Shown: one piece after another, positions 5,424 through 57,608 of the stretch
How the letters are laid out: each line of letters starts with the position of its first letter
Position numbering within the stretch: the first letter of the stretch is position 1
Origin: Planctomycetota bacterium
GTDB taxonomy: Bacteria > Planctomycetota > GCA-002687715 > DRQF01
Direction: 5' to 3'
Length of the DNA: 64,000 nucleotides
NCBI GenBank assembly: GCA_036479435.1
Contig: JAZGFI010000103.1
Coordinates: 33,955-97,954 of the forward strand
Position numbers and translations under genes: made by a program
The notes under the pieces: model-generated
Seen by the model: only the letters and a program-made list of their open reading frames with translations
Told to the model about the DNA's origin: nothing
Database searches by the model: none

Positions 5424-6380
5424 TTGACGAGCGAAGGGAATGCATCCAGCGCGATCCGAGCCGAGGGTCTTTGCGTCCGCTACGGGAAGTTTGAGGCGCT
5501 TTCAGAGCTCAATCTCGACTTCCGTGGACCCAGCTTGGGCCTTTTGGGCCCCAACGGCGCCGGGAAGAGCACTTTCATCAAGACCCTGCTGGGGCTTATT
5601 CGCCCCAACGCCGGTCGTGCATCGGTCTTGGGCCTGGACTCCCGCCGCCAACGCTTGGCGCTTAGGCGCAGCGTCGGCTACGTCCCCGAAAAAGATTGCC
5701 ATATTCCAGAGATGAGCGCGGTGGACTACGTCACCTTAGGCGGTGAGCTTGCCGGGATGCCACGCAGTGACGCGATCCAACGGGCCCACGAGATGCTCCA
5801 GTTTTGCGGAGTCGGTGAAGCCCGCTATCGCGCCGTCGATGACTATTCAGCCGGCATGCGGCAACGGACAAAGCTGGCACAAGCCTTGGTGCACGACCCC
5901 AAGTTGGTGTTCTTGGACGAACCCACGAATGGCCTGGATCCAGAGGGTCGCCTGAAGTTGCTGTCCGTTCTTCGCGACCTGCAGGAGAATAAGGGCATTC
6001 GGATCGTGCTCTCATCGCACCTTCTGCGAGACGTAGAATTCGTCTGCGAAGAGGTGATGGTTTTGCGCCGAGGTCGCCTCGTCGTACATGGCAACGTTCT
6101 CGAACTAAAACAGCTTTCCGATCGCCACTTGCTGGTGAAAGCGCGAGGCGACATCGCCGTCTTTCAGCGTGCGCTCGAAGGCAAAGGCTGCCAGTTCGAA
6201 GACGACGGTAAACAAAGCTACCGGGTGATCGTGCCGAGCGGTTGCGGGAGCGAACTCATCCTCGAGACGGCCCTCGAAAACGATATTCAAATCCGACATC
6301 TCAAACGCGAAGAGTCAAGCTTGGAGGAGGCCTTCCTCTCCGCGCTCGACGGTGAGGCCAACCGTCATGCCGGTCTATGA
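5424..6380 (+). CDS. ABC transporter ATP-binding protein (pair 1)
   Basis: Walker A GPNGAGKST, signature SAGMRQRT, Walker B LVFLDEPTNGLD, H-loop SSHLL. Start proposed at in-frame TTG 5424, 9 nt after AGGAGG (5409-5414). The longer 5181/5361 starts would abut or overlap the divergent upstream gene. Confidence 0.8.
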   Translation: MTSEGNASSAIRAEGLCVRYGKFEALSELNLDFRGPSLGLLGPNGAGKSTFIKTLLGLIRPNAGRASVLGLDSRRQRLALRRSVGYVPEKDCHIPEMSAVDYVTLGGELAGMPRSDAIQRAHEMLQFCGVGEARYRAVDDYSAGMRQRTKLAQALVHDPKLVFLDEPTNGLDPEGRLKLLSVLRDLQENKGIRIVLSSHLLRDVEFVCEEVMVLRRGRLVVHGNVLELKQLSDRHLLVKARGDIAVFQRALEGKGCQFEDDGKQSYRVIVPSGCGSELILETALENDIQIRHLKREESSLEEAFLSALDGEANRHAGL

Positions 6381-7284
6381 CCAAAGCTATCGTCACTGGA
6401 AAGGCAGTTTTCGCCGCAGCCCGCTTAGATGGGCACCCATGGTTTCCTACCACATGAAACACTTGATGCGCTCGAAGCTGGTGTGGTTTTTCCTGCTGGG
6501 GGCCTTTGCCCCGGCTCTGGGCGCGATCATCTTCGTATATGTGGGCTATCTTGAAGGTCCCGAAGTGCTCAGCCGAGCGGTTGATGTGCTGCTGATCGAT
6601 TCGCTCGGCGAAAGCGCCACCCGCGATGACGAGTACCGGATCATGGCTCGCTACGGCATGTTGAGCATGCTCGTGTTTCCGCAGTCTTTTGTGGTCTTGT
6701 CGATCACCAGCATTGTCGGTTCTGGCCTGATCGCCAAAGACATCAGAAGCAATGCCCTCGAGATCTACTTGACGAAACCCATTACCCCGACGGACTACAT
6801 CCTGGGCAAGCTCGCGGTCATCGCGATTTTCATCTTCTTGGTCACCTTCGCGCCGGCGGCCTTGGTGCTTTTGGTGGCATCATCACTTTGGGAGGGTTTC
6901 GGTGCCGCCGCCTTGTCGGTGACGCCGGCTTTGTTTTTGGCCTGCGCTATCACGGCCTTAGTGAACGGCTCGGTCATCTTAGGTCTGTCTTCGTTGACGA
7001 AGTCTTCGCGCTATGCGACGGTCATTTGGTTCGCGATCTGTTTCGTTTCGCAAGCGACGGCGAGCGCTCTGCAAGAAATCACGCGTGAACCCATGTGGCA
7101 GGTGATCAGCTATCGCCAGAATTTCGCTTTGATCATCGCAGAGATCATGGGTTCGACGGAATTGCCCAATGTCGTCGTGAGTGATCCGCCTCATATGGGT
7201 ATTCCCATCGCCCTTTTGGGGTTTGCGACATTGACGGCGATTCTCGTCCTGCGACGGACGATTCGCGCTGTGGAGAACGCTTGA
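6367..7284 (+). CDS. ABC-2 type transporter permease (pair 1)
   Basis: Multi-TM hydrophobic protein directly following the ATPase. ATG 6367 lies 11 nt before the ATPase stop (a GTG at 6352 is also possible). ABC-2 family topology. Confidence 0.6.
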   Translation: MPVYDQSYRHWKGSFRRSPLRWAPMVSYHMKHLMRSKLVWFFLLGAFAPALGAIIFVYVGYLEGPEVLSRAVDVLLIDSLGESATRDDEYRIMARYGMLSMLVFPQSFVVLSITSIVGSGLIAKDIRSNALEIYLTKPITPTDYILGKLAVIAIFIFLVTFAPAALVLLVASSLWEGFGAAALSVTPALFLACAITALVNGSVILGLSSLTKSSRYATVIWFAICFVSQATASALQEITREPMWQVISYRQNFALIIAEIMGSTELPNVVVSDPPHMGIPIALLGFATLTAILVLRRTIRAVENA

Positions 7285-18877: not shown

Positions 18878-21715
18878 ATGGACAAGATTGCAATTCCTTT
18901 CCTATTGCTACTGGCTCTGATCGGCGCTGGTGCCGCGGTCTGGTTTTATGTTGCAGAGGACTCGATTGAGCCCGATGACACCAAGCAACCCGAAGTCGTT
19001 GACGTCGATGAAGAAATGGCAACAGTCGACAAGAAGCCGGACCCCAGCGCGGTCGTTGGTGAACGCATCGAGATTGCGAAGGGCTCTGGCGAAAAAGCGG
19101 TGGCGGAGATCGGCCCCGAGGGAATCCTCCAGGGCACGGTTTACGATCTCAACGGAAAACCTCTCGCGGGAACGAAGATCAAGCTCTTCAAGTTCAAGCA
19201 GGTTCCGATGCCCAAGACCGGACGCACCCGCATCGACTTCGCTCAAAAAGAGGTGAAGATGGCGACGACGGACGCTACGGGTCACTACGAATTCAAAGAG
19301 TGCCTCGCCAAATATCCCGGCAAACAGCTCTCGATGAAAAGTCTCAACCGCGAGTACGTTGCGGTGCTGAAGGACCATGTCGGAGCCGGCATGGTCGTTG
19401 ACTTCAAATTGCAACGTGGCGCTCGCGTTATGGGCGTCATTACGGATCGCGATACCGGTAAACCCATCGAAGGCGTTCGCGTCAAAGGTGACGTCAAGAA
19501 CGTTACCTCTTCGATGCACAGCTATGAGCGCTTCACGGAAGTCACCAAGACCGACTCTCAAGGACGCTACGAACTCAATGGAGCGCCAGCGGGTCGGCTG
19601 CAAATGCTCTTAGAGCACGAAGACTATGAGATGTCCTACATTGCGCCTTCGCAGGGCCTCGACACCACCTTAGGTAATGATCTCAAGTTTAGCTTCAAAA
19701 TGAAGCGTGGCATCGTCTTGAATGGTTTGGTTATTGACGCGACGACGCGGAAGCCGATTGCCGGTGCGGTCTTCACTTACAAAGAAATGCCCTTCATCTC
19801 GCATGCAAAAGAGAAGACGGGAATCCTCGGAAAATTCAGGGTCAAGGGAATCTCACGTGGGTTCCGCTCGATCGAGATCATGGCCAAGGACTACACACAC
19901 CTGAGACAAAACGTCGACTTTAATGACGACGATATGGCGAAGGAAATCATTTTCGAGTTGAAACCCGCGGGTCGCGCCCGTGGGCTCGTGCTCGACGACA
20001 ACGGCGATCCGGTTGAGAACGCCGACATCTACGTCGCGATCCAAATCGGTGTCTTCTTCAAGATTCGGGATTATCCCGAAACAAGAACCGATGCACAGGG
20101 CCAATTCGAGGTGAGAAATCTCGGCGATGGCGTCGAGTACAAGATCTGTGCCGCTCGGGAAGGATGGACCGTAGGGGTCGGCGAAGTTCTGCGCGGGGCC
20201 ACCGGCGAGGTCGTCGAAGACGTCATCGTCACCGTTGATCGAGGCTCGGTGGTTCAGGGCCAGATTTTGGATCAATCCGGCGTGGCTATCGCCGGCGCCG
20301 AAGTTGCCCTCTACAAGCCGCCCGTGCAGGGCGTCTGGTTCCCGCCGGGATTCAAGGTGGGGCAGAAATCCGACGAGAGCGTCGTCGCCGACGAGACCGG
20401 TACTTACAAGTTCAAAGGGCTCCATGCCGGTCGCTATCGGCTCTCGGTCGACCACGTCGAGTACATCGCCGTGGCCTCCAAACAGGTCGATATCAGCGCT
20501 GGGAATGAGAGCCTCAACTACGACTTCAATCTCGAACGCGGCCGCACAATTTCGGGTCGCGTTGTTGACGATGTCGGCAACGTGGTCGCCGGTGCTCGCG
20601 TCGACGCCACTCAGGGGCGGAACATCCGGCAAAGAGTCTCGGCTACGACCGACGAGAGTGGCGAGTACGTCATTCGACGCCTTCACGATCGTCCCTACCG
20701 AATCTTCGCCAGCAGCCGCAGCAAGGTTGGCACCGCGCTGGACGATGTGCCGGCCGATAGCTCGAACATCGACTTTGTGCTGCAAAACTACGGGTCGTTG
20801 AGAGCCCACTTGGCGTCCCGGTCTGGCGAAACTCCGGAGAAAATGAAGATCACCCTCTTCCCCTTGGCAGATGTCGAGCGCAAGGGTGCAAAGTATGCAA
20901 AGGACCGAATGGCACAAAAGATGATGCGAACGAGTGAGGCGTTCATCGAGAAGGATATCTACCCTGAGAACGGTTACATCGATGTGCAGAAGATCGTGCC
21001 TGGCGACTACCGTATCGAACTCAGTTCAGATGAATTCCGAGAGTACAAACTCGAGCTCATTACGATCGCTTCCGGTTCCCTTACTAACGGCCCCGAGATT
21101 GTGCTCCTCAGCGGCGGGCGGCTTGAAGGCTACATCTTAGACTCAGAAGGAAATCCAGTTGGCGGCAAGGAAATTCAGATCTTCCTTCGTGCCGGTCGCG
21201 GTACGCTGAAAAAGACCTCCATTGGCAAGGGCGGCAAGAGAGTGACGACTTCTAGCCGAGCCGATTGGCCAGGCAAACAAGTCGTACCGGATAGCGAGGG
21301 CTTCTACAGCATTGGCGGGTTGCCCCCGGGCAAGATTGAGATGGTCATTCGATCGCGCTTGTACTGCGTTCCGCAGATTGAGGAACTTCAAGTTCCGGGC
21401 GAGAGCATCCTAAAGAAGAACGTGACGATGGTCCGCGGTGGAACGGTGCTGTTCCACGTCAAGGACGAAAACGCGGCTCCGGTGCCTCACGCGCAAGTTT
21501 CAGTGGTCACGATGGACGGAAACCCGGCGAAAGTCGATGGTCGGCGGGTCGCCGCCCGAGGTTCCGTGCGGGGTGAATTGAGAGTTCCGAAATTGATGCC
21601 TGGCAAATACAAGTTCTATATTCGACGTCGTGGACACGACACCGTCGAACTTGAGATTGAAGTCGGTCCCGGCGAACAAGCCATTCGGGATGTGACTTTG
21701 CCGGTCATCCGTTAA
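18878..21715 (+). CDS. large membrane-anchored protein of tandem carboxypeptidase-regulatory-like (prealbumin-fold) domains
   Basis: N-terminal TM anchor (IPFLLLLALIGAGAAVWFYV). At least eight repeats of G(x)V/I xD xxG xP (I/V)xGA x(V/I), e.g. GTVYDLNGKPLAGTKIKLF, GVITDRDTGKPIEGVRVKG, GQILDQSGVAIAGAEVALY, typical of the CarbopepD_reg fold. Confidence 0.6.
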   Translation: MDKIAIPFLLLLALIGAGAAVWFYVAEDSIEPDDTKQPEVVDVDEEMATVDKKPDPSAVVGERIEIAKGSGEKAVAEIGPEGILQGTVYDLNGKPLAGTKIKLFKFKQVPMPKTGRTRIDFAQKEVKMATTDATGHYEFKECLAKYPGKQLSMKSLNREYVAVLKDHVGAGMVVDFKLQRGARVMGVITDRDTGKPIEGVRVKGDVKNVTSSMHSYERFTEVTKTDSQGRYELNGAPAGRLQMLLEHEDYEMSYIAPSQGLDTTLGNDLKFSFKMKRGIVLNGLVIDATTRKPIAGAVFTYKEMPFISHAKEKTGILGKFRVKGISRGFRSIEIMAKDYTHLRQNVDFNDDDMAKEIIFELKPAGRARGLVLDDNGDPVENADIYVAIQIGVFFKIRDYPETRTDAQGQFEVRNLGDGVEYKICAAREGWTVGVGEVLRGATGEVVEDVIVTVDRGSVVQGQILDQSGVAIAGAEVALYKPPVQGVWFPPGFKVGQKSDESVVADETGTYKFKGLHAGRYRLSVDHVEYIAVASKQVDISAGNESLNYDFNLERGRTISGRVVDDVGNVVAGARVDATQGRNIRQRVSATTDESGEYVIRRLHDRPYRIFASSRSKVGTALDDVPADSSNIDFVLQNYGSLRAHLASRSGETPEKMKITLFPLADVERKGAKYAKDRMAQKMMRTSEAFIEKDIYPENGYIDVQKIVPGDYRIELSSDEFREYKLELITIASGSLTNGPEIVLLSGGRLEGYILDSEGNPVGGKEIQIFLRAGRGTLKKTSIGKGGKRVTTSSRADWPGKQVVPDSEGFYSIGGLPPGKIEMVIRSRLYCVPQIEELQVPGESILKKNVTMVRGGTVLFHVKDENAAPVPHAQVSVVTMDGNPAKVDGRRVAARGSVRGELRVPKLMPGKYKFYIRRRGHDTVELEIEVGPGEQAIRDVTLPVIR

Positions 21716-22176: not shown

Positions 22177-22623
22177 TCAGCGCTTTTCTTTTTCCAGGGC
22201 CGTCATCTTGTCAACCCGCCTTCGGTGCCTTCCTCCCGCGAACTCGGTCGCCAAAAACGTCTCCATTGCGGACTCTAGTTGGGCTGATCCCAAGACGCGA
22301 GCTCCGAGGCAAAGCACGTTCGCATCGTTGTGTTCTCTCGCGAGGCGAGCGCTTAAGTCGGAGTGGCAAAGAGCGGCGCGGACGCCGTTGATCTTGTTGG
22401 CTGCGATCGAAATCCCGATGCCGCTGCCGCAGAGCAGGACCCCGAAATCGGCCTCTTTGTTGGCCACCAATCGGCCGACCTTCGCGGCCACATCTGGGTA
22501 GTCCACCGAGTTGCTGTCATCAGTTCCGACATTGGCCACTTCATGTCCCATGGATTGTAATTTCTCCATCAAGCTGGCCTTCTCCGCGAAAGCGGCGTGG
22601 TCGTTTCCGATGGCGATCTTCAT
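22177..22623 (-). CDS. rpiB: ribose-5-phosphate isomerase B (RpiB/LacA family)
   Basis: MKIAIGNDHAAF start, CGSGIGISIAANK active-site region, 148 aa. Confidence 0.85.
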   Translation of the reverse strand: MKIAIGNDHAAFAEKASLMEKLQSMGHEVANVGTDDSNSVDYPDVAAKVGRLVANKEADFGVLLCGSGIGISIAANKINGVRAALCHSDLSARLAREHNDANVLCLGARVLGSAQLESAMETFLATEFAGGRHRRRVDKMTALEKEKR

Positions 22624-23693
22624 GGTGCCTCCCTCAGTTTCTTCAAGGCCAAGCTGATCTGCTCGGCGGTGCTTCGGTAAAGATCAACGTCGCCGCCAAA
22701 GGGATCGATGATGTCGGCCCTAGGGTCAAGGGGGCGGATGCGGTCGGCGAAATCCGGGAATTCATGCGCGAGGATTTCTGCGTGGTGTGCGGTCATCGTC
22801 AAGATGCGATCCATGCGCCGGAGAAGGTCACCGCTGATCGGTCGCGAGCGGTGTCCCCTCAAAGACAGACCGCGCTCTTCCGCCACGATCTGTGCGGCCT
22901 CAGACGCGGGTGTTCCCGCCCAAGCTGAAATGCCCGCCGAAAAGATTCGAATGGCGGGCGCTTCGTCGCCCTCAGTGCCGCCTTCCTGCTCGATCTGCTG
23001 CCTCAAAATGGCCTCAGCCATCGGGCTGCGGCAGGTGTTTCCGGTACAAACCAAGAGGATGCGCTCGGCCAGTTCTTCGGCGACCGTTGTGGCCTCGATG
23101 GCACCTTCTCGCAACACCTCGAAACTGCCATTTTCGAACACGCGGACTACGGTGGAGGGAACGCCTCCGAGCGGTCGGTCGTACTCGACAATAAGATTGA
23201 CGCGGTCGCCGAAAGCCTCGTTGATTGCCTGTGCCGTCGTGAAGTCGGGGCGACCGCTCACGTTGGCACTGGTACCGACGATGGAAAAAGGGGCGCGGCG
23301 AGCGAGCGCCGGCGTGAAAGCGTCAGAGGGGCAACGGAGACCAACGGTCCCTCCGCCGCGGTTGTCGACGACGAGCGTTATGGCACCCGGCCATAGGGCT
23401 CGCGCAAGCCGTTCGGCCGCAGGGGCTAACTCGCCACCAGCGGCGGCGCGGGCCTGGACCAGGTTGCACACGTAGCGGGCCAAGGGCTTGCGCTCGCTGC
23501 GTTGCTTCAGGGCGTAGAGAGCTTTTGTCGCTTCGGGATCGTCGCCGCGGATTCCCAATCCATAGACCGTTTCGGTGGGGAAGGCCAAAATCCCGCCGTC
23601 TTGAAGGCACTCGATGGCCCGTGCCAGAATCGGCTCCAAATTGGCCGCATCAAATTTCAGAATCTCGGTCATGATTTTTGAGGTTATCAGCAT
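22620..23693 (-). CDS. tsaC: fusion protein: YrdC/TsaC-type threonylcarbamoyl-AMP synthase domain plus low-molecular-weight protein (Tyr/Arg) phosphatase domain
   Basis: N-terminal half carries PTETVYGLG and TSANVSGRP (YrdC/Sua5 fold). C-terminal half carries ILLVCTGNTCRSPMAEAI (CX5R P-loop) and a DP loop (IIDPFGG), as in LMW-PTP/YwlE. The stop overlaps the rpiB start (ATGA). Confidence 0.75.
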   Translation of the reverse strand: MLITSKIMTEILKFDAANLEPILARAIECLQDGGILAFPTETVYGLGIRGDDPEATKALYALKQRSERKPLARYVCNLVQARAAAGGELAPAAERLARALWPGAITLVVDNRGGGTVGLRCPSDAFTPALARRAPFSIVGTSANVSGRPDFTTAQAINEAFGDRVNLIVEYDRPLGGVPSTVVRVFENGSFEVLREGAIEATTVAEELAERILLVCTGNTCRSPMAEAILRQQIEQEGGTEGDEAPAIRIFSAGISAWAGTPASEAAQIVAEERGLSLRGHRSRPISGDLLRRMDRILTMTAHHAEILAHEFPDFADRIRPLDPRADIIDPFGGDVDLYRSTAEQISLALKKLREAP

Positions 23694-23794
23694 CCGAGGA
23701 CCGGTGCGGACTTTTGACCAAATCCACGGAGCGTGTTAACAGGCGGGTAGGATCATGGCCCCGCAAGGGCCACCGCCTCTTGAGAGCGCAGGGA

Positions 23795-24541
23795 ATGTCC
23801 GAGCACCAATCCAAAGAACGATTGCAACAACTTAGCGCACTTGTGGGCGGGCTCGCCCACGAGATCAAAAACCCCTTGTCGACGATTAACATCAACCTTG
23901 AGCTGTTGCGCGAGGACTGGCATCACGACGGCGGGCCGCTGGCTAGTCGTTCGATTCGTAAAATCGACGTCTTACTGCAAGAATCGAGGCGCTTGGAGGG
24001 GATGCTGACAGAATTCATCAGACTAACTTCGACCGCCGAGCTCGACCCGAGCATCGTGGATATCAATGTCCTCTTGGAGGACGTCCTCGATTTTACGGCG
24101 GCCGAATGTCGGAATCGCAATATCCAGATCACCAGCCAGCTGGACCGCTCGCTCCCGCGCGTTGAGTTGGACCCCAACTTGATCCGCCAGGTGGTCTTGA
24201 ATCTCCTCAAAAACTCCTTCGAGGCCATGGAAGAGCGTGGCGGCACGATCACCGTCAACACCAGGCGCAAGGCGGCGGGGAGTGACTCGGAACTTAGGGT
24301 TGTGATCGAGGTTATTGACAACGGCTCCGGCATCACCCCGGAATCCCAAAAGCGGGTCTTTCAGGCTTACTTTTCTACCAAAGCCGAGGGAACTGGATTG
24401 GGTCTTCCCTCGGTACAAAAGATCGTCGAACGGCACGGCGGTCGCATTAGCTGTGAGAGCGCTCCCGGTTTGGGAACTCGCTTCGTGGTCGAGCTCCCAG
24501 CCAGGCAACCGTCAGCACCAGCACCTGACGAGGGACCCTGA
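23795..24541 (+). CDS. soluble sensor histidine kinase (HisKA + HATPase_c)
   Basis: H-box LVGGLAHEIKNPLSTI. N, G1 (DNGSGI) and G2 (GTGLGL) boxes. No TM segment. Start at ATG 23795; the longer frame would run into the divergent gene. Confidence 0.8.
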   Translation: MSEHQSKERLQQLSALVGGLAHEIKNPLSTININLELLREDWHHDGGPLASRSIRKIDVLLQESRRLEGMLTEFIRLTSTAELDPSIVDINVLLEDVLDFTAAECRNRNIQITSQLDRSLPRVELDPNLIRQVVLNLLKNSFEAMEERGGTITVNTRRKAAGSDSELRVVIEVIDNGSGITPESQKRVFQAYFSTKAEGTGLGLPSVQKIVERHGGRISCESAPGLGTRFVVELPARQPSAPAPDEGP

Positions 24542-24546
24542 ACGTC

Positions 24547-25932
24547 ATGGAACGTGATATCAAGGTTCTGGTCATCGATGACGAGGCTAACCACGCCCAA
24601 GCCACCGCCGAGATTCTTGAACGCATGGGCTACGACGTCGCGGTGGCGACCTCGGGCAAAAACGGTCTCAAAACGATCGCGGCGGATGTCTTTGATCTCA
24701 TCGTCACTGATGTCGTCATGGGCGAAATTGGCGGCTTGGACATCCTCCAGGCGGCTAAGGCCAAGAACGCTGCAACCGAGGTCATCTTGGTGTCGGGTCA
24801 AGGTAGCGTTGGCATGGCGCTAGAGTCCATTCAGCTCGGTGCGGCGAACTACCTCACAAAGCCGCTGAAAGTCGACGAGGTCCGCACTGAAGTTAGAGAA
24901 GTCGTTCGCCGGATTAGGGACCGGCGGCGAGGGAATGTGCCGAAGGCCATTCCCGTCGCGGTCGAACGTATTCCGTCCGAAGAGTACGGCGATTTTCACG
25001 AGTTCATCGGCCGTTCCGCCGCTCAGCTGCAAGTCTTCGAGATGATCCGCAAGGTCGCTCCCACGTCGGCGACGGTCTTGGTTACAGGACCGAACGGGTC
25101 CGGCAAGGAGCTCGTCGCCCGGGCGATTCACCGCCTGAGTCCACGCCACGCCAATCCCTTCGTCGCCTTGAATTGCGGCGCCATGGCCGAAAACATTCTC
25201 GAGAGCGAACTGTTCGGTCACGTTCGGGGCGCTTTCACCGGGGCCACCGCGAACCGTGAAGGTCGTTTTCAGTACGCCGACAAGGGCACCCTGTTTCTCG
25301 ATGAGATTGGCGACACCTCGCTTTCGTTCCAAGTCAAACTATTACGGGTCATCCAAGAGCGAGAAGTGACGCCGGTTGGTTCCAATGCCACGCGTCAGGT
25401 CGATGTCCGAATTATCACGGCAACTAACCGTGACTTGGCGGAAGAAGTCCGCCGGGGCAACTTTCGCGAGGATCTCTACTACCGCTTGAAAGTCGTGCAT
25501 ATCCAAACCCCTCCGCTCAAACATCGCCGAGAAGATATCCCCGCCTTAGTTCAGCATTTCATCACAGAAGCCAACGCGAGCTTCGGCAAGCAGGTAAGCG
25601 GAATCCAAAAAGTCGCGCTCCAACAACTCATCAACTACGACTGGCCCGGCAACGTCAGACAACTGAAAAACACCGTCGAAACAATGGTGGTATTGGGCTC
25701 AACGACGGAGCTAGGAACGGAAGACATCCCCTCGGACGTCGTGGGGACCGCGACCCCCGGTCAGGCGCTCGCACCGCTGGAGATCTTTGAGCAGTTGACG
25801 CTTTCGGGCATCGAAGAGTTCATGATCCGTCACCACCTAAAAAAGTTCGACGGGAGCCGCGCCAAGGTCGCCGAAGCCCTGGGGATCTCAGAGCGGACCC
25901 TCTACCGCAAGCTCAAAGAGTACGGCGTCTAG
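24547..25932 (+). CDS. sigma-54-dependent response regulator (NtrC family: REC + AAA+ + Fis-type HTH)
   Basis: REC domain with the phospho-acceptor Asp in LIVTDVVM. Walker [15 protein letters not shown] motif, Walker B LFLDEIGD, Arg-finger region. C-terminal HTH ([25 protein letters not shown]). Confidence 0.9.
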
Positions 25933-26162
25933 GCAGGCGCCGCAGGGCGTCAAGGTCAAACTCAACCTGTCAGATTGGCACTGCACACCTAAAGCCTTTC
26001 CCTCCGCTGTCAAAAAGACAGGGTGCCCGCAGCCCCCTCGATTCACCTAAAACACGCCTATCAAGGGAGTTGGGCGCATGCCTTGCGGCGCCACGTTCGG
26101 CCTCATATTTGCGCCCTGGAGCCCGTAAACACTCAACCGGAATAACCAAAAAGGAGTCCGGC

Positions 26163-28088
26163 ATGTCCAAGATCATCGGAATCGATCTCGGTACCACCAA
26201 CTCAGTCGTCGCCGTCGTAGAGGCGGGCAAACCCACGGTCATCACCAATGCCGTCGGCAATCGGACGACACCCTCAGTGGTCGCTATCACCGAGTCAGGC
26301 GAAGAACTCGTCGGCATGAGCGCCAAACGGCAAGCCGTCACGAATCCTCTCAACACCATTTTCTCGATTAAGCGTTTCATGGGACGCCGCCACTCGGAAG
26401 TCCTCGACGAAGAAAAGCGCTTACCCTACAAGCTGGTGGGTGCCAGCGATGAAATCGTCAAGGTGGAAGTGCAAGGCCGCACCTACGCCGCACCCGAGAT
26501 CAGCGCCAAGATTCTCAAGTCGCTGAAAGAAACCGCGGAAAACTACCTCGGCGAGCCGGTCGAGAAGGCCGTGATTACCGTGCCCGCTTACTTCAACGAC
26601 AGCCAACGCCAGGCAACGAAAGACGCGGGTCGGATTGCTGGCCTCGAAGTGGTGCGCATCATCAACGAGCCCACCGCGGCGGCGCTCGCCTACGGCATCG
26701 AGAAAGACTTCACCGGCAAGATCGCCGTGTACGACCTCGGTGGCGGCACATTCGACATCTCAATCTTGGACGTTGACGCCGGTGACGGCGACGAATTGGG
26801 CAAGACCTTCGAAGTGCTCAGCACCAACGGCGACACTCAGTTGGGCGGCGATGACTTCGATGAAGCGGTTCTCGATTGGATCGCCCAAGAATTCTTGCGC
26901 TCGAATGCCGTCGACCTTCGCGACGACAAAATGGCGCTCCAACGCTTGAAGGAAGCGGCAGAGAAAGCCAAGTGCGAGTTGTCGACAACGGTTCAAACCG
27001 AAATCAACCTTCCCTTCATTACGGCGAACGCAAGCGGCCCGCTTCACTTGCAGATGACCTTGACGCGTTCGCGCTTCGAACAGATCGTGGCACCGCTCAT
27101 CGAACGCACCAAGCTGCCCTGCCTGAACGCTTTGAAGGACGCAGGTCTCCAGCCCTCGGATGTTCACAACATCATCTTGGTTGGTGGTTCGACCCGAATT
27201 CCCGCCGTGGAGGCGATGGTCAAAGAACTCTTCGGCAAGGACGTCGATGGCGGGGTGAACCCCGACGAAGTCGTTGCGCTTGGAGCCGCCCTACAAGGTG
27301 GGATCTTGGCTGGCGAGCGCGACGATGTTGTGCTCATGGATGTGACGCCCTTGTCCTTGGGCATCGAGACCCTCGGGGGCGTGATGACCAAAGTCATTGA
27401 GCGTAACACGACCATTCCCTCGCAGAAGACGATGCCGTTCTCGACCGCAGACGACAACCAAACCACGGTCAGTATTCACGTCTTGCAGGGCGAACGCGAG
27501 ATGGCTGGCGACAACCGCACCTTGGGTCGCTTTGATCTGACCGGAATCCCATCGGCGCCACGCGGCCGACCGAAAATTGAAGTCAGTTTCGATATCGATG
27601 CGAACGGCATCTTGAAGGTCGCGGCGAAAGATTCCGAGACCGGCAAGCAGCAGGACATCAAGATCACTTCGTCCTCGGGTATCTCCGAAGAGGAAATCGA
27701 GCGCATGAAGCGCGACGCCGAAGAGCACGCCGCCGAAGACAAAACCAAGCGCGAACTCATCGAGTTGCGCAACCGTGCCGACATGGTGGTTCACGACACC
27801 GAAAAGAACCTCAAAGAGCACGGTGACAAGATTTCGGAAGAGGACCGCGCCAAAGTCGAAGCGGCGCGCGAAAAACTCAAAACCGACCTCGAAGGCGGCG
27901 ACAAGGAGAGCATCGAGAAATCTGTCGAAGCTCTTATGGAAGCGTCGCAGTCTTTAGCCAAGGCGCTTTACGAAGCCGAAAACCCCCAAGCGGGCGGTCC
28001 CGAGGCGAGCGGCCCGGGTCAACCCGAAAGTGAGCAAAAAGACGACGACGACAACGTGATCGACGCCGATTTCACCGTCAAGAACTGA
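26163..28088 (+). CDS. dnaK: molecular chaperone DnaK (Hsp70)
   Basis: [26 protein letters not shown] and [11 protein letters not shown] Hsp70 signatures. 641 aa with a charged C-terminal tail. ATG at 26163. Confidence 0.95.
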
Positions 28089-36256: not shown

Positions 36257-36512
36257 TTTTGGGGAACCGGATTTTTGGCCCCAACTAGGTCAGTTATCGG
36301 ATTCGTCGAAAAGGGTCTTTCAACGCCGACTATAGCCCTTATGGGGCCCACGGGTGCTTTTCAGCGAGTGTTTCGCAGCAAGCGCCTGGGGTCGGCGCCG
36401 CTTGCTTCGGCCCAAGATTCGTCAGATTCTGAGTTTACGTTAGGTGGGAAATCTCGATAAGACCTGTCTGGGCGCAACCGTTACCCGGCCCGTCGAGTGG
36501 ATAAGAGGAGCC

Positions 36513-37451
36513 ATGGACGTCGATCTTTCAGTGATCATCCCGGTCTTCAACGAAGAAGACAACATCGAACCGCTAGAAGCGGAGCTCCAGGCGGTGCTTG
36601 AAACACTGCCCGGACGCTCCGAAGTGATCTTTGTAGATGATGGGTCTAGCGACCGCTCCTTCGAGCGTCTTCGCGAGGTCGTTTCGCGTCGAGATTGGGC
36701 GCGCGTCGTGAAGATGAAGCGCAATTTTGGGCAGACCCAAGCCATGGCGGCCGGTTTCGACTACGCCCGAGGTAGCGTCCTCATTTGTATGGATGCCGAC
36801 CTGCAAAACGACCCCCGAGACATCCCGCGCTTGCTCGAACGCATGGATCAAGGCTTCGACATTGTGAGTGGTTGGCGCAAGGACCGAAAAGACAAGTTCC
36901 TTACGCGGCGCTTCCCCTCGATCTGCGCCAACTGGTTGATTGGGCGCATCGTCGGGGTTCGCATCCACGACTACGGCTGTTCGCTGAAGGCCTACGATGC
37001 CCGCGTGGTGAAATCCTTGAATCTCTACAGCGACATGCACCGTTTTCTCCCCGCGCTCGCATCGAAATGTGGTGCGCGCGTCACCGAGATCACCGTCAAT
37101 CACCGGGCCCGACTGCACGGTGAGAGCAAATACGGATTGTCGCGCGTTTTCAAAGTCGTGATCGATATCGCCGTCATCAAGCTCATTGTTGATTTCGCCG
37201 CGCGGCCGATCCACGCCTTTGGTCCGATCGCGGCGATCTACATGTTGGCGGTCCTGTTTACCCTCCCGTTTTTCGTGATCAATCTCGCCGTGGGATATCG
37301 CGTCAATGTTGTGATCCCAACCATCATGGTTTTGTTCGCGATGGGTGCGCTTTACTTTTTCGGTATCGGAATGCTGGCGGACCTGGTCGTCCGCGTCGGC
37401 CGCGATGACACCGCGCGCTATGCCCGCGCCACCGCGATGGAGTTGAGCTGA
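36513..37451 (+). CDS. glycosyltransferase family 2 (polyprenyl-phosphate sugar transferase-like, DPM1/ArnC type)
   Basis: LSVIIPVFNEEDNIE, DDGSSD and DADLQND (DxD) motifs. Two C-terminal TM helices. ATG 36513 is preceded by AAGAGGAG. Confidence 0.75.
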   Translation: MDVDLSVIIPVFNEEDNIEPLEAELQAVLETLPGRSEVIFVDDGSSDRSFERLREVVSRRDWARVVKMKRNFGQTQAMAAGFDYARGSVLICMDADLQNDPRDIPRLLERMDQGFDIVSGWRKDRKDKFLTRRFPSICANWLIGRIVGVRIHDYGCSLKAYDARVVKSLNLYSDMHRFLPALASKCGARVTEITVNHRARLHGESKYGLSRVFKVVIDIAVIKLIVDFAARPIHAFGPIAAIYMLAVLFTLPFFVINLAVGYRVNVVIPTIMVLFAMGALYFFGIGMLADLVVRVGRDDTARYARATAMELS

Positions 37452-37452
37452 T

Positions 37453-38499
37453 ATGAGTCGAGTTCCCGGTCTTCAGGCCGCTGAGGCAGCTGAATCCACT
37501 GATGTCATCGAGCGCTATGAGTTCGATGTCACTTTGGTCGTGGTGGCATCCGACGTGGATGTTCATCTCGACAGTTTCGTCGAGATGATCGACGCCTTTC
37601 GCCGCGTCTTCCACGAATCAAATCTGAAAGCCGAGTACATCGTCGTCGACGATGGCAACACGGGTTCGTTTTACGACCTCCTCGTTCGCTTGAATCGCGA
37701 GATCCCCAACTTCAAGGTCATCCGTTTTCGGCGCACCTTCGGCGATTCGGTGGCCCTGCAAATAGCGACGGAGCGGGCCCGTGGAGAATTCGTCATCACG
37801 AACACCTGGTACTTGCAAGTCAAGGCCGAAAGCGCACTCGACGCCATTCGCCAACTTCGCAATGGGGCGGACGTCGTCGCGGGAGTTCGCTGCCCGCGTG
37901 TCGATTCCTTCGTAGCTCGAATTCAGAGCTGGGGATTCAATGTTCTGACGCGGTTTTTGACCAACGTCGGGTTTGAAGACTTGAATTGCTCTTTCCGAGC
38001 TTTCAAGCGTCAGGTTCTCAGCGAGATCCACTTTCACGGCGACCTTTTCCGATTTGTACCCGTCTTGGCCGTCGGGCAAGGATTTCGAGTCGAAGAAATG
38101 GAAGTCACCCACGTCGCAGAGAAGGGTCCAGGGACCTTTTTGAACTTCAGCCTGTATGTTCGAAGATTTCTTGATGTCTTCAGCCTTTTCTTTCTTTTGA
38201 AATTCACGAAGAAACCACTACGTTTCTTCGGACTGACGGGATTCGCATTGGCATTCGCCGGCTTTATCGTTGCTTGCTTCTTGTTGTGGGACAAGTTTTT
38301 TGCCGCCGAAGAGATCGGAATGGTCGACAGGCCTCAAACCGTGCTAGCGGTTTTGTTGATGGTCTTGGGTCCCATCTTGCTTTCGATTGGTCTTATTGGG
38401 GAAATCATCATCTATACGCAGGGCAAGGGTCTCTCCGATTATCACATCGACACGATCCTAGGGGCAAAAGATGAGGACAAAGCACGCCGTGACGATTGA
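37453..38499 (+). CDS. glycosyltransferase family 2-like protein with C-terminal TM helices (second copy)
   Basis: GT-A fold region (VVDDGNTGS) followed by two TM helices. Paralogous in architecture to the preceding GT2 gene. Confidence 0.55.
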   Translation: MSRVPGLQAAEAAESTDVIERYEFDVTLVVVASDVDVHLDSFVEMIDAFRRVFHESNLKAEYIVVDDGNTGSFYDLLVRLNREIPNFKVIRFRRTFGDSVALQIATERARGEFVITNTWYLQVKAESALDAIRQLRNGADVVAGVRCPRVDSFVARIQSWGFNVLTRFLTNVGFEDLNCSFRAFKRQVLSEIHFHGDLFRFVPVLAVGQGFRVEEMEVTHVAEKGPGTFLNFSLYVRRFLDVFSLFFLLKFTKKPLRFFGLTGFALAFAGFIVACFLLWDKFFAAEEIGMVDRPQTVLAVLLMVLGPILLSIGLIGEIIIYTQGKGLSDYHIDTILGAKDEDKARRDD

Positions 38500-39571
38500 G
38501 ACTGAACCCCGAATTCCCCTAGAGGAAGCACCTCCGGTGGAAGTAAGGCCCTATGCCGCTAGCGACCGCGAGGCCTGGAGCCAGTATCTAGGCAAACACC
38601 CTCAAGCGACTTTTTTTCACACGCTCGATTGGGATGAGATCATCCGGCGGACTTTCTCCCACGAGAGCCGTTTTTTGATCGCGCATCGCGACGGTCAGAT
38701 CAGCGGGATCTTGCCGCTCACTAGGGTGAGTTCGGCGTTTTTTGGCACTTCACTCATCTCCGTTCCCTTCGGCGTCTACGGCGGGTTGTTGGTCGACGAT
38801 CAAAAGAGCGCCGACGCGCTCTTGAAGGCGGCCGGCGAAGTCGTGGCGACTGAAAAAGCCAAGTACGCGGAGCTGAGGCATCTGCATCGCCCCGACATCG
38901 ACCTGCCTCGCAACGAACTCTACGCGACTTTCATCGAAGACGTTCCGGGCGACGCGGAGGGCTGTTTGGCGCGTTTACCGCGAAAGGCGCGGGCGGAGGT
39001 GCGCAAGTGCTTGAAGGATGAGCTGCTGACGGCGGAAGAGGAGGGAATTAGCCTCGAAGACTTCCATCGCCTCTTTTCATTGAACAAACGCAAACTTGGA
39101 TCGCCTTTGTTTCCGTCCAGCTTGTTTTGGCACATCCGGGACGTCTTGGGCGCCGAGAACGCGCCGATTCTCACCGTCAAACGCGACGGAAGAGTTCTCG
39201 CAACGGTGATGTCCTTTGTCTTTCAGGACACCATCATGCCCTACTACTCCGGCTCGGCGCCGGATGCTGATCGCTTTCGTGGCAACAACTTCATGTATTT
39301 CAAACTCATGGAGTGGGCCTCAGAACGCGGCCTCAAAAAGTTCGATTTTGGACGCAGCCGCGTTGAGACGGGATCATTCTCTTTCAAAAAGCACCAGGGT
39401 TTCGAGCCCATCCCGCTGTCTTATGACTATCTGCTTGCAGAGGGAGAGGAGATCCCCTCCCTGAATCCCAGCAACCCCAAGTTTCGAATGGCAAAGCGCG
39501 TTTTTCGTCGTATGCCACTGTGGATGGCACAAAAAGTCGGCAGTTGGCTGGTGAAACGCGCACCCTTCTAA
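38471..39571 (+). CDS. FemAB-family / GNAT-fold acyltransferase-like protein (Acetyltransf_6 type)
   Basis: FMYFKLMEWASERGLKKFDFGRS is the characteristic C-terminal block of FemAB-like proteins found in polysaccharide loci. 366 aa. Confidence 0.55.
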   Translation: MRTKHAVTIETEPRIPLEEAPPVEVRPYAASDREAWSQYLGKHPQATFFHTLDWDEIIRRTFSHESRFLIAHRDGQISGILPLTRVSSAFFGTSLISVPFGVYGGLLVDDQKSADALLKAAGEVVATEKAKYAELRHLHRPDIDLPRNELYATFIEDVPGDAEGCLARLPRKARAEVRKCLKDELLTAEEEGISLEDFHRLFSLNKRKLGSPLFPSSLFWHIRDVLGAENAPILTVKRDGRVLATVMSFVFQDTIMPYYSGSAPDADRFRGNNFMYFKLMEWASERGLKKFDFGRSRVETGSFSFKKHQGFEPIPLSYDYLLAEGEEIPSLNPSNPKFRMAKRVFRRMPLWMAQKVGSWLVKRAPF

Positions 39572-39683
39572 GGGGCAGGGTAAGCCCATCGGAGTCAGGA
39601 CTGCTTCGACAAGGGCTCGACTCTTAGACACCTCGACTGTTAGACTCACAAACATAGTCCTAAAACAGCCGGAGTCCTAGGAT

Positions 39684-41033
39684 TTGAAAGTCCTCATCGC
39701 AGACGACGAGAAGAGCATCGTGATGACCCTCGAGGATGACCTCGAGGAGGCGGGTTACGAAGTTTTATCCTGCCCCGATGGTTTACGTGCGCTCGACCTG
39801 ATCAAGCGCGAGTCGGTGGACTGTCTCATCTCCGACCTCAACATGCCGGGCCTAAACGGCATGGACTTGCTCGCCGAAGCCAAAAAGATCTCGCCGAACC
39901 TTCAAGTGATTGTCATCACGGGGTACGCCACGATCGAAAGCGCGGTCAAGGCCATCAAGTTGGGCGCGGCGGACTACATCCAAAAGCCCTTTTTGAACGA
40001 ACAGATCCTCGCGATGCTCGCGAAGATGAAAAAGATCGTCCGTCTTGAACGCGAGAACGCCGTTTTACGAGAACAGCTGGACGACGTTCATGCGGTCGGC
40101 AATATCGTCGGCAAAAGCAAGGCGATGCAAGACGTCATCCGCACGGTGAAGACCGTCGCGAAAACGGACTCCAACATCTTGATTGTCGGTGAAACGGGCA
40201 CCGGAAAGGAAGTCATCGCCCGGGCGATTCACAACCTGAGCATGCGAAAAGGGAAGCTCATGGTCGCCCTGTCCTGTGCGGCTATTCCCTCAAACCTTTT
40301 GGAAGACGAGTTGTTCGGTCACGAAAAGGGTGCGTTTACCGATGCTCGTGACCGCAAAATCGGACGATTTGAACGCGCTGACGGGGGATCATTCTTCCTC
40401 GATGATATCGATGACATGCCGCTCGAGACTCAGGTCAAGCTGCTGAGGATTCTTCAGGAACGGGAATTTGAACGCCTTGGCGGCGAGGAGACGATCAAGG
40501 TTGATGTCCGGGTTGTCGCGGCGAGCAAGGTCGATCTTCGCGAGCTCGTAAGAGCGGGCAAGTTCCGCGAGGATTTGTTCTATCGCCTCAATGTCGTGCC
40601 GGTCTTGCTACCGCCGCTTCGAGATCGCGATGGCGATGTGCCCTTGTTGGCGTCTTATTTCATGAAGAAATTCTCGACCGAACGGGAATACGAGATCAAG
40701 CCCGAAGTGATGGCGGCGATGGAAGCCTATTATTGGCCGGGCAATGTCCGCGAACTCGAGCATGCGATTGAACGCGCCATCGCTTTTGCAGGAAGCGGAC
40801 ATGTGCTCAAAAAAGAGCACCTCGTCGAATCGTCTCCGGTCCACAAAAAGGCACTCGCCGTGCCGACCCACTTAACAACCTTGCGAGAGTTCGTCGAGGA
40901 AGCCGAGATGCAGCACATTCGCAACATCCTCAAGACGACCAACGGCCACAAGGCCCAGGCGGCAGGAGTTCTCGGCATCAGCCGCAAGAACTTGTGGGAA
41001 AAGATGCGGCACTATGACATCGAGCAGGACTAA
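39684..41033 (+). CDS. sigma-54-dependent response regulator (NtrC family) with a variant GAFTDA loop
   Basis: TTG start. REC with the phospho-acceptor Asp in LISDLNMPG. Walker A GETGTGKE. GAFTDA in place of the canonical GAFTGA. C-terminal HTH (AQAAGVLGISRKNLWEKM). Confidence 0.88.
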   Translation: MKVLIADDEKSIVMTLEDDLEEAGYEVLSCPDGLRALDLIKRESVDCLISDLNMPGLNGMDLLAEAKKISPNLQVIVITGYATIESAVKAIKLGAADYIQKPFLNEQILAMLAKMKKIVRLERENAVLREQLDDVHAVGNIVGKSKAMQDVIRTVKTVAKTDSNILIVGETGTGKEVIARAIHNLSMRKGKLMVALSCAAIPSNLLEDELFGHEKGAFTDARDRKIGRFERADGGSFFLDDIDDMPLETQVKLLRILQEREFERLGGEETIKVDVRVVAASKVDLRELVRAGKFREDLFYRLNVVPVLLPPLRDRDGDVPLLASYFMKKFSTEREYEIKPEVMAAMEAYYWPGNVRELEHAIERAIAFAGSGHVLKKEHLVESSPVHKKALAVPTHLTTLREFVEEAEMQHIRNILKTTNGHKAQAAGVLGISRKNLWEKMRHYDIEQD

Positions 41034-55658: not shown

Positions 55659-57608
55659 ATGAAGAAACTAGTATACCTTTCCTCCTTCATGGGGACTTTT
55701 CTGCTAGTGGCGAGCCTCGCGTTCGCTCACGGCGGTAATTACACCGGACCTGGCGGTACGGGATCCGGCGGCGGATTCTCACCTTCAGGTGGTGGTACTC
55801 CCGGCCCGGGTCCTGGACCCGGCGGTGGTGGTACGACCGGTGGCGGTTCTAACGGCGGCGGCGCGACCGGCCCTGGCGGCGGTCTTCCCGGTGGTCCGAC
55901 CGGACCTGGCGGCGGTGGCGGCGGCGGAAATGCTGGCGGACCTGGCGGCGGACTCGGTGGTGGCGGCGGTTCGACGCCCGGCGCTCGCAAGGCCGCCAGT
56001 GACGCGAACGTCACTTGGGCCGCTTGGTGGTTCTTCAACGATGATCGCTTCTTGAACCTCAAGGCGAAAGTTCGCGCCGACGAAGCGCAAACCGAAAACG
56101 CCGACTTGTTCCTGGGTGAAGACACCTCCGATGCCGGTAGCAACCGAATGCCCGCGAAGAAAATTCGCGAAGGTGTGTTGCCGGTTCTGCGCCTCGCGTT
56201 GAAGGACTCCTTCTACGACACGCGCGCTGCGGCCGTGATTGCCCTCGGCAAATGTGGCATGGGCGATGACCTCGCTGAAATCAAGTCTGTCCTCAACGAC
56301 CGTGACAAACGTGTCCGCGAATCGGCAGCGTTGGCGATGGGGATCCTTGGCGACAAGGAAGCCATCCCGACCCTCATCGAGATCATGAACAACACCAAGT
56401 CTGCGCGGAAATTGCTTCGCAAGGGCGGTGAAATTCTTCCCCGTACTCGTTCGTTCGCGGCTATCGCCATTGGTTTGATCGGTCGTCGTACCGACATCTC
56501 CGATACCGAAGGAACGCGCGCCCTCATCAAGCTCATGAACGACAAGAGAGCCACCAAGGCGCAAGTCGACCTCGCGGTCGGACCGATCGCCGCTCTCGGA
56601 ATCATGAAGTCGAAGGAAGCCATTCCCGAGCTCGTCAAGTACTTGAAGAACTCCAACAACCGCACCGTGGCCCGCTCGTTTGCAGCGACCTCGCTCGGCA
56701 AGATTGGTGATCGTTCGGCTCTTGAGCCGCTGTTGAAGTGCTTGAAGGACAAGCAGAACGCGATCGTTCAGTCCTCGACCATGGCTTTGGGTCAAATCCT
56801 TGAGCCCTCTGACACCAAAGAAGTGAAGCGCGTGAAGAAGCTCGTCTCGACGAGTGCTGACCTTTCGGTCAAGAACTTCGCGATCATGTCACTCGCTCAA
56901 ATCGGTGGCGACGAAAACCGTCAGTTCATCACGAGACTCGTGACCAAGGGTAAGGCTTTGCAAAAGCCCTTCGCTTCGCTCGCGGTCGGCGTGTTCTACT
57001 ACAACAACCCCGATTTCCTTCACCGGGAATCTGCGGCCAAGATCATCCACAAGGAGTTCAAGAGCACCAAGAACCCCTCGGATCTCGGCGCGCATGCGAT
57101 CGCTTTGGGTCTCATGAAGTACGACGCCGCTGGCGCCGACATTCTGAAGATCCTCAACAAGGGTGGCCAGGCTTCGCTTCGTCAGCACCTTGCGATCTCA
57201 CTCGGCCTCATGGACTACCGCGATTCCATCAAGGACATCCGGGAGATCGTGAAGGAAAAGGGTGATGTTGACTTGCGACGGAACTCCGCCATTGCTCTCG
57301 GTCTCCTCGGCGACCGTGGTGCCATGAAGTTCCTCAGCGAAGAAATCGCGAAGTCCTCGAACACGCAGCCGGTTCTCGGCGCCGTGACTCGTGGCCTCGG
57401 ATTCATCGGTGATGCGAGTGCGGTTCCGTTGTTGACGAAGATGGTCAAGGATTCGAAGAAGTTCAAGGACAACACGCGCGCCTTCTCGGCCGTGGCCTTG
57501 GGCTTGCTGGGCGACAAAGATCCCCTGCCCTTCACCGCCTCCATCTCTGAGAACAACAACTACATCCAGCGGACCGATGCGATCCGCGAAGTCCTGACGA
57601 TTCTCTAA
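55659..57608 (+). CDS. secreted HEAT-repeat (PBS-lyase-type) protein with Gly/Pro-rich N-terminal region, paralogue 1
   Basis: Signal peptide MKKLVYLSSFMGTFLLVASLAFA with the predicted cleavage site directly before HGGNY. An ~85-aa Gly/Pro tract, a conserved WAAWWFFNDDRFLNLKAK block, then >12 repeats of DxxVRxxAAxALGxxGD. Confidence 0.7.
   Translation: MKKLVYLSSFMGTFLLVASLAFAHGGNYTGPGGTGSGGGFSPSGGGTPGPGPGPGGGGTTGGGSNGGGATGPGGGLPGGPTGPGGGGGGGNAGGPGGGLGGGGGSTPGARKAASDANVTWAAWWFFNDDRFLNLKAKVRADEAQTENADLFLGEDTSDAGSNRMPAKKIREGVLPVLRLALKDSFYDTRAAAVIALGKCGMGDDLAEIKSVLNDRDKRVRESAALAMGILGDKEAIPTLIEIMNNTKSARKLLRKGGEILPRTRSFAAIAIGLIGRRTDISDTEGTRALIKLMNDKRATKAQVDLAVGPIAALGIMKSKEAIPELVKYLKNSNNRTVARSFAATSLGKIGDRSALEPLLKCLKDKQNAIVQSSTMALGQILEPSDTKEVKRVKKLVSTSADLSVKNFAIMSLAQIGGDENRQFITRLVTKGKALQKPFASLAVGVFYYNNPDFLHRESAAKIIHKEFKSTKNPSDLGAHAIALGLMKYDAAGADILKILNKGGQASLRQHLAISLGLMDYRDSIKDIREIVKEKGDVDLRRNSAIALGLLGDRGAMKFLSEEIAKSSNTQPVLGAVTRGLGFIGDASAVPLLTKMVKDSKKFKDNTRAFSAVALGLLGDKDPLPFTASISENNNYIQRTDAIREVLTIL

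Follow-up and report, generated by a model that had tools for sequence, protein, structure and literature searches.

A fusion of predicted TsaC and YwlE-type phosphatase domains overlapping rpiB in a Planctomycetota genome, and its relatives in other bacteria

N6-threonylcarbamoyladenosine at position 37 (t6A37) of tRNAs reading ANN codons belongs to the small number of tRNA modifications that are universal. Its first step is carried out by TsaC, which converts threonine, bicarbonate and ATP to L-threonylcarbamoyl-AMP (TC-AMP). Phosphoarginine (pArg) tagging is a recently recognised degradation signal that has been studied almost only in Firmicutes, and the literature searched describes the pArg system as Gram-positive. 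The two meet in Bacillus subtilis, where TsaD, which uses the product of TsaC, is phosphorylated at Arg282, is degraded via McsB/ClpCP and is protected by the phosphatase YwlE (Ogura 2020, PMC7546277). In YwlE and in S. aureus PtpB, a Thr in the P-loop selects pArg and an Ile selects phosphotyrosine (PMC8001253, citing Fuhrmann 2013). The present work concerns a stretch of 64,000 nt from a Planctomycetota bacterium (contig JAZGFI010000103.1, positions 33,955 to 97,954; hereafter the window), in which a single open reading frame (ORF) encodes a YrdC/TsaC domain followed by a low-molecular-weight protein tyrosine phosphatase (LMW-PTP) domain and overlaps the start of rpiB. New here are at least three origins of this fusion, the occurrence, in some planctomycete lineages, of eroded YrdC domains on intact phosphatases, and the presence of McsA/McsB genes on a fusion-bearing Planctomycetota contig.

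Domains and junctions of the fusion gene

The fusion gene and rpiB comprise the following features, numbered by position in the window.

22620-23693, minus strand: tsaC~LMW-PTP fusion ORF, from the ORF listing and two full-length Pfam domains
23103-23609, minus strand: YrdC/TsaC domain, residues 29-197 (PF01300)
23061-23102, minus strand: inter-domain connector, residues 198-211, with a helix at 201-208 in the structural model
22635-23060, minus strand: predicted YwlE-type LMW-PTP domain, residues 212-353 (PF01451)
22628-22635, minus strand: GAGGGAGG, a Shine-Dalgarno-like run within the 3'-terminal codons of the fusion gene, with the ATG of rpiB 4 nt further downstream
22620-22623, minus strand: ATGA stop/start overlap (4 nt) of the fusion gene and rpiB, read from the sequence
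22177-22623, minus strand: rpiB, ribose-5-phosphate isomerase B, 148 aa, Cys type (LLCGSGIG), by PF02502 and NCBIfam models

An initial annotation of this DNA had described one ORF carrying a complete YrdC-type domain and a complete LMW-PTP domain, and the domain search bears that description out. Positions 22620-23693 hold one unbroken ORF of 357 aa in the ORF listing. PF01300 (Sua5_yciO_yrdC) covers residues 29-197, aligned from position 2 to the last position, 178, of the profile, at 143.8 bits (cut-off 25.1, E = 5e-42). PF01451 (LMWPc) covers residues 212-353, aligned from position 1 to position 143 of a 144-position profile, at 95.4 bits (E = 4.6e-27). The motifs quoted in the same annotation, PTETVYG, TSANVSGRP, CTGNTCRS and the DP loop, can all be read in the sequence.

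In the N-terminal half, the threonine-binding loop PTETVYG occupies residues 39-45 (window 23559-23579) and TSANVSGRP residues 141-149, with SAN at 23262-23270; K63-x-R65 lies at 23499-23507, and R120 is also present. Residues T40, E41, T42, K63, R65, R120, S142 and N144 align with their equivalents in P. abyssi Sua5 and T. maritima TsaC2. Among PDB entries, the Sua5/TsaC2 catalytic domains from P. abyssi, T. maritima and S. tokodaii and the single-domain archaeal MTH1692 come closest in sequence (E from 1e-18 to 4e-20), and YciO is a far weaker match (E = 6e-7). The N-terminal domain of an AlphaFold2 (AF2) model, built on an alignment of 47 fusion proteins, matches Sua5, TsaC and YciO structures in Foldseek.

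TsaC and Sua5 can be told apart by the residue preceding the SxN motif: TsaC has Thr or Ser there, and Sua5 has Pro (Pichard-Kostuch et al. 2023). The window protein carries Thr141 at this position (GTSAN). Across the fusion family, the position is held by Thr in 159, Ser in 31 and Pro in 65, and Pro, Ala or Ser stands in place of the interface Glu that is specific to the GVE motif of Sua5. No match to the SUA5 domain (PF03481) was found in the fusion protein by the Pfam scan, and the 18-residue connector is without a Sua5 linker of the PGxKYxHY type, which is the type found in a Bacillaceae Sua5 (locus L048). Because of Thr141, the missing interface Glu and the absence of both the SUA5 domain and the Sua5 linker, the N-terminal domain is, as far as sequence can tell, almost certainly a single-domain TsaC-type L-threonylcarbamoyl-AMP synthase. 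Sua5 structures align over both halves of the model at a root-mean-square deviation (rmsd) of 13-18 Å in Foldseek, with a query-normalised template modelling (TM) score of about 0.48, and therefore superpose on the N-terminal domain alone. Two candidates were rejected on this account: a two-domain Sua5/TsaC2 identity, which the lack of PF03481 and of a gating linker also speaks against, and a phosphatase domain acting as a structural stand-in for SUA5.

In the C-terminal half, the P-loop CTGNTCRS comprises residues 216-223 (C216, T220, C221, R222 and S223; window 23025-23048) and the general-acid loop D330-P331 lies at window 22701-22706, so that the C-X5-R-(S/T) P-loop and the Asp general acid that define an LMW-PTP are both in place. 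The initial annotation had raised the possible loss of the catalytic Cys or Arg; on a proper alignment Cys, Arg and Asp are all kept. The best PDB matches by sequence are B. subtilis and Geobacillus YwlE and Thermoanaerobacter 4egs (E of about 1e-20 to 1e-21), followed by TT1001 and Wzb (about 1e-13), YfkJ (6e-11) and human LMW-PTP (about 1e-6), the Wzb-type and eukaryotic LMW-PTPs being at least seven orders of magnitude weaker than YwlE. The C-terminal domain of the model matches YwlE at a target-normalised TM of 0.83-0.88 and an rmsd of 1.7-2.1 Å (Foldseek), and T220, the fifth residue of the P-loop, is the pArg-favouring Thr at the position of Thr11 in YwlE/PtpB. The domain can be assigned with near certainty, from these comparisons, to the YwlE class of low-molecular-weight phosphatases. 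A thioredoxin-coupled ArsC identity was also considered and rejected: Cys216 and Cys221 are the sole cysteines of the domain, the Cys82/Cys89 relay is missing, and ArsC models score 27-31 bits on the fusion protein against cut-offs of 174-215. As a separate matter, chain 4egs_A is named 'Ribose 5-phosphate isomerase RpiB' in the PDB sequence file; its title and fold are those of an LMW protein tyrosine phosphatase, and the adjacent gene is the probable source of the misname.

The stretch from Gly197 to Cys216 is exactly 18 residues long in 47 of 47 and in 253 of 267 aligned fusion proteins. Since the connector is of fixed length and contains one short helix, the relative geometry of the two domains is probably rigid. 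The model has a mean predicted local distance difference test score (pLDDT) of 94.1 and a predicted TM score (pTM) of 0.86. For a chain of two domains such a pTM is high, which suggests that their arrangement is fixed.

At its 3' end the fusion gene reads AAG AAA CTG AGG GAG GCA CCA TGA, and rpiB (ATG AAG ATC...) opens inside it, so the overlap of stop and start first noted in the initial annotation is the ATGA at 22620-22623. The run GAGGGAGG just upstream may act as a Shine-Dalgarno sequence for rpiB. The rpiB product contains a full-length PF02502 (LacAB_rpiB) domain (E = 2.5e-57) and scores above the NCBIfam equivalog cut-offs (TIGR01120, 163 against 138.65 bits; NF004051, 188.6 against 135), as expected for a member of the RpiB family. 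At the 5' end, the NCBI copy of the fusion protein (P0001) is 100% identical, comprises 350 aa and begins at Met8 (ATG at 23672), as does the family alignment. Because it fits the family alignment better, this ATG is the more likely start of the gene, which would then encode 350 aa. Scans for promoters, terminators and Rfam families around the fusion-rpiB operon gave nothing above background.

Spread of the fusion and of the tsaC-phosphatase-rpiB block

Both Pfam domains are present in 120 of the 120 best homologues of the window protein. A HMMER search over 1.84 billion cluster representatives (50% identity) gave 661 clusters at E <= 1e-30, a level that one domain is unlikely to attain by itself, as the best single-domain PDB matches reach just 75-80 bits. 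Among GTDB species representatives, the fusion was found as a single ORF containing both motifs in 30 loci. Within Planctomycetota these belong to Pirellulales, Lacipirellulaceae, Planctomycetales, Gemmataceae, Phycisphaerae and Sedimentisphaerales, and outside it to Omnitrophota and to one metagenome-assembled genome (MAG) each of Verrucomicrobiota, Longimicrobiales and Bacillota. The cultured planctomycete Posidoniimonas corsicana carries the fusion (P0101). The lineage survey proposed in the initial annotation has thus yielded 30 species-level loci alongside the 661 clusters. That annotation had also pointed to a frameshift or sequencing error as a way in which two genes could be joined artificially into a single ORF. 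Hundreds of independent assemblies, drawn from several sources, share the same in-frame junction and the same 18-residue spacing, which excludes an artefactual fusion for practical purposes, and the chance that an assembly or sequencing artefact is at work here is close to nil.

Catalytic residues of both halves are conserved across the fusion family. On the phosphatase side, C216 and R222 are present in 267 of 267 proteins and D330 and C221 in 266 each; position 220 has a Thr in 213 and a Ser in 25, hence Thr or Ser in 238 of 267. On the TsaC side, T40 is found in all 267, R120 in 266, S142 in 262 and N144 in 258; position 63 has a Lys or an Arg in 262, and position 65 has an Arg in 227. The window gene is a typical member of this large family, which is annotated in databases and experimentally uncharacterised, and by its residues its own copy belongs to the class with an intact TsaC. 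A description of a TsaC-LMW-PTP fusion was not found in t6A reviews, papers on the two families or literature on the gene context of YwlE, all open-access, in which absence is no proof. In one family member of 895 aa (P0156), the TsaC-phosphatase unit takes up the first ~350 residues and is followed by ~540 residues of other content.

In 26 of the 30 single-ORF loci rpiB lies downstream of the fusion, with a start/stop overlap in 15 (ATGA in 14, TAATG in one). Elsewhere the same genes occur unfused. In Bacillota (L033, L038, L043 and L073) tsaC/sua5, the phosphatase gene and rpiB are separate and in the same order, in Pontiella tsaC and ptp are adjacent as separate ORFs, and in Gemmatimonadales, and likewise in Bacillota, the frames of tsaC and ptp already overlap (L035, L037, L039, L052 and L043 across both groups). 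The block tsaC/sua5 - ywlE-type phosphatase - rpiB is therefore old and widespread, and the fusion is its usual form in Planctomycetota. Apart from rpiB, no neighbour of the fusion is conserved across Planctomycetota; in L005, L010, L012, L014 and L020 (Omnitrophota and some Planctomycetales-labelled MAGs), purM, purD and purE lie upstream of fusion-rpiB and nrdR downstream. At one locus (L009) a dCMP-deaminase-like gene follows the fusion in place of rpiB.

The phosphatase-rpiB pair also occurs without tsaC, e.g. in L055, and phosphatase-rpiB is the tightest conserved linkage of the block. This could be taken to mean that the LMW-PTP domain acts on a small phospho-compound, such as a phosphoramidate, an acyl or sugar phosphate tied to the chemistry of RpiB or a side product of TC-AMP synthesis, or that it is an arsenate reductase, since the LMW-PTP fold includes arsenate reductases and weak matches to ArsC models are found. 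The scores of those models far below their cut-offs and the missing Cys82/Cys89 relay argue against such a role, as do the closest relatives in sequence and structure, which are YwlE arginine phosphatases. To our knowledge there is no small-molecule substrate for this phosphatase clade, and the proposal is highly improbable.

Two loci carry fusions of a different build. In the Longimicrobiales locus L030 the halves are joined by a long low-complexity linker, and a Bacillota MAG (L062, positions 614-2401) encodes a 595-aa triple fusion of YrdC, Sua5_C and LMWPc, also with a long low-complexity linker. These are independent fusions of the same neighbours, and the fusion has thus arisen at least three times. 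A route is suggested in which both the SUA5 domain and the stop between the genes disappeared from a pair of sua5 and ptp neighbours, which fits the minority of Pro signatures and the triple fusion of L062.

Such a history also allows a plainer account, namely that two unrelated housekeeping neighbours with overlapping stop and start were merged by a small deletion or stop loss, with no cross-talk beyond co-expression. In many phyla these genes are neighbours without being fused, the overlapping frames of Gemmatimonadales and Bacillota are junctions that fuse easily, and in L005, L010, L014 and L020 the block sits among housekeeping genes of nucleotide metabolism and translation. Against neutral collapse, the invariant connector length in 253 of 267 proteins and the pTM of the model point to a fixed, selected geometry, and the fusion has arisen repeatedly. 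It is a serious possibility, albeit one with the lesser chance of being right.

A further observation bears on the same question. In eight fusions, found in Gemmataceae, Phycisphaerales and others, KxR and/or SxN is lost from the YrdC half. They lie at the following positions of their loci.

L007, 5824-7107: eroded fusion
L017, 1496-2716: eroded fusion
L021, 1128-2297: eroded fusion
L024, 4555-6102: eroded fusion
L025, 5953-7086: eroded fusion
L028, 5593-6633: eroded fusion
L029, 2109-3215: eroded fusion
L076, 5734-7038: eroded fusion

In these proteins PF01300 scores just 31-110 bits, and L028 has no match to it at all; PF01451 still reaches 74-99 bits, the catalytic residues of the phosphatase are kept and rpiB is usually still next. 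They look like a pseudo-TsaC scaffold on a phosphatase that is predicted to be active. Retention of the eroded domain argues that the YrdC fold gives the phosphatase something beyond its own catalysis; it is the strongest hint of a true coupling and is hard to explain by neutral collapse if YrdC gave the phosphatase nothing. The same eight proteins, with weak PF01300 and intact PF01451, could also mean that the YrdC-like domain is a recruiting or regulatory module for the phosphatase, binding tRNA, nucleotide, threonine or TsaD, and that t6A synthesis is secondary or provided by another gene. The window protein and the majority of its close relatives, however, keep all catalytic and substrate-binding motifs of TsaC intact, and an active TsaC is the simplest reading here. 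No second tsaC/sua5 homologue was seen in the 64-kb window. A mere recruiting module is very unlikely.

Possible function and surroundings

The fusion protein is probably bifunctional, a TsaC joined to a YwlE-type phosphatase as the usual Planctomycetota form of the block, with the phosphatase acting on pArg marks of t6A or translation proteins. The domain identities, the intact catalytic residues, the age, breadth and recurrence of the fusion and the conserved coupling to rpiB are the observations from which this proposal starts, and the steps by which the protein would work may be pictured as follows. The N-terminal domain would make TC-AMP for t6A37. In the phosphatase, Cys216 would serve as nucleophile, Arg222 as the P-loop arginine, Asp330 as general acid and Cys221 as redox partner, and Thr220 would confer a preference for pArg. 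Both active sites would work independently while being held in a fixed geometry, and the fusion would set a 1:1 ratio and bring the phosphatase to the t6A machinery, where it would strip pArg from t6A or translation proteins, as YwlE does with TsaD in B. subtilis, and pArg removal would protect those proteins from Clp-dependent degradation. The rpiB gene would be translated off the same mRNA via the ATGA overlap.

The initial annotation had regarded the fusion as strong evidence for a coupling between t6A biosynthesis and a protein phosphatase and had called that coupling unexplained. Most of its interpretation holds, but the coupling does have a partial explanation in the arginine phosphorylation of TsaD and its protection by YwlE (PMC7546277).

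Components of a pArg system are found in Planctomycetota as well. A B. subtilis McsB sequence served as a probe, and its match in locus L019 was then confirmed independently with NCBIfam models. In L019, a Planctomycetota locus, McsA/McsB genes (5629-7271) lie on the contig of the fusion, ~2.3 kb downstream of fusion-rpiB; the NF002194 score of the McsB, 383.2, lies slightly under the cut-off of 385. Close homologues of McsB are numerous in metagenome data of Planctomycetota and Sedimentisphaerales, and mcsA/mcsB occur also in L081 (8416-10143), L082 (8471-10140) and L083 (6334-8003), the conserved Planctomycetota order being coaD, PTPS-like, mcsA, mcsB ... dnaK. The mcsAB genes of L019 show co-occurrence with the fusion, not linkage.

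Several points weigh against the bifunctional reading. A genomic linkage of mcsA-mcsB with the fusion had to be rejected, as it is seen in L019 alone and the related loci L081-L083 keep coaD, PTPS, mcsA, mcsB and dnaK without the fusion upstream. No McsB, ClpC or TsaB/D/E was found in the 64-kb window. On the TsaC side, the window protein narrowly misses the NCBIfam TsaC equivalog TIGR00057 (118.3 against a cut-off of 123.2, which is a score threshold and not a mechanistic feature); it scores 57.5 on NF007919 (TsaC type 1) against a cut-off of 175, and a fusion relative in L019 clears TIGR00057 at 141.1. On the phosphatase side, position 220 is hydrophobic in ~10% of the family. Finally, no report of activity of either domain was found for any family member in the open-access literature.

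A more far-reaching version holds that the fusion is a direct physical coupling of t6A synthesis and pArg protein quality control that operates outside Gram-positives too. The rigid YrdC/TsaC domain, in some lineages an inactive scaffold, would bring the phosphatase to TsaD/TsaB/TsaE or to tRNA-bound complexes, where it would erase McsB-type marks and, through a Cys216/Cys221 switch, tie the stability of the tRNA-modification apparatus to stress and redox state. As a whole this is rather unlikely. A conserved and repeatedly evolved covalent link between TsaC and a phosphatase turns a vague neighbourhood hint into a testable hypothesis. The fusion is a natural single-chain construct for biochemical and structural work, the lineages in which TsaC is eroded offer a ready-made evolutionary control, and the McsA/McsB homologues of Planctomycetota indicate that arginine phosphorylation may reach beyond the range given in the current literature.

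Within the window the fusion-rpiB pair stands alone. Upstream and divergent are genes for a histidine kinase, a sigma-54 response regulator (24547-25932) and dnaK (26070-28088), in this order; downstream and convergent to rpiB is a gene for a 945-aa protein of CarboxypepD_reg (carboxypeptidase-regulatory-like) repeats (18878-21715, plus strand). The histidine-kinase ORF as listed (23678-24541, plus strand) opens at a TTG that lies within the 5' end of the divergently oriented fusion gene; its real start is probably the ATG of 'MSEHQSKERLQQ', ~120 nt further in. Farther away, positions 36444-41033 contain two glycosyltransferase genes, then a gene for a FemAB-family XrtA/PEP-CTERM-associated protein (TIGR03019, 356 bits) and next one for a sigma-54 response regulator like the PEP-CTERM-box regulator (TIGR02915, 412 bits, cut-off 502.6). 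By these matches the region looks like a PEP-CTERM exopolysaccharide locus. Two paralogues of ~645 aa with HEAT-like repeats and weak matches to CpcE/NblB repeat families are encoded at 55659-57608 and 58149-60083, both on the plus strand.

Comparison with described systems

The gene order tsaC, phosphatase, rpiB on one strand is shared with the Bacillus cluster ywlC-ywlD-ywlE-ywlF (tsaC-ywlD-prpB-rpiB). There, in contrast to the window, the genes are separate, the membrane-protein gene ywlD is inserted and the TsaC is of the two-domain Sua5 type. The initial annotation had given ywlC, ywlE and ywlF as adjacent. Their order is confirmed, but a direct adjacency of ywlC and ywlE is not, since ywlD is located between them, upstream of ywlE (PMC10448178); the Bacillaceae locus L048 likewise reads sua5, a gene for a 185-aa membrane protein, ptp, rpiB.

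The YrdC fold, the threonine-binding PTETVYG loop, KxR, SxN and Arg120 are common to the fusion, to TsaC of the E. coli YrdC type and to Sua5/TsaC2 of B. subtilis (YwlC), P. abyssi, S. tokodaii and T. maritima. Unlike Sua5, the fusion is without a SUA5 domain and gating linker, and its C-terminal partner is a phosphatase, which in the model does not take the position of SUA5.

Other fusions of YrdC-type adenylate-forming domains are known (see, among others, PMC10484737), including M. genitalium MG259 (TsaC/HemK), TsaD-TsaC-SUA5-TcdA, HypF and TobZ, and they resemble the present one in that the partner is encoded nearby in other genomes. In those proteins the partner belongs to the same pathway (a Kae1-like transferase, TcdA) or to translation-factor methylation, whereas here it is of the protein-phosphatase type.

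The closest likeness on the phosphatase side is to YwlE (PrpB) and PtpB. The P-loop CTGNTCRS is identical, including the pArg-favouring Thr and the second Cys, and the DP[F/I]GG loop is shared. Identity to YwlE is 33-34%, and in both cases tsaC/sua5 lies upstream and rpiB downstream. YwlE and PtpB are free-standing phosphatases of the Gram-positive pArg system, whereas the phosphatase described here is joined to TsaC and is found in a planctomycete host.

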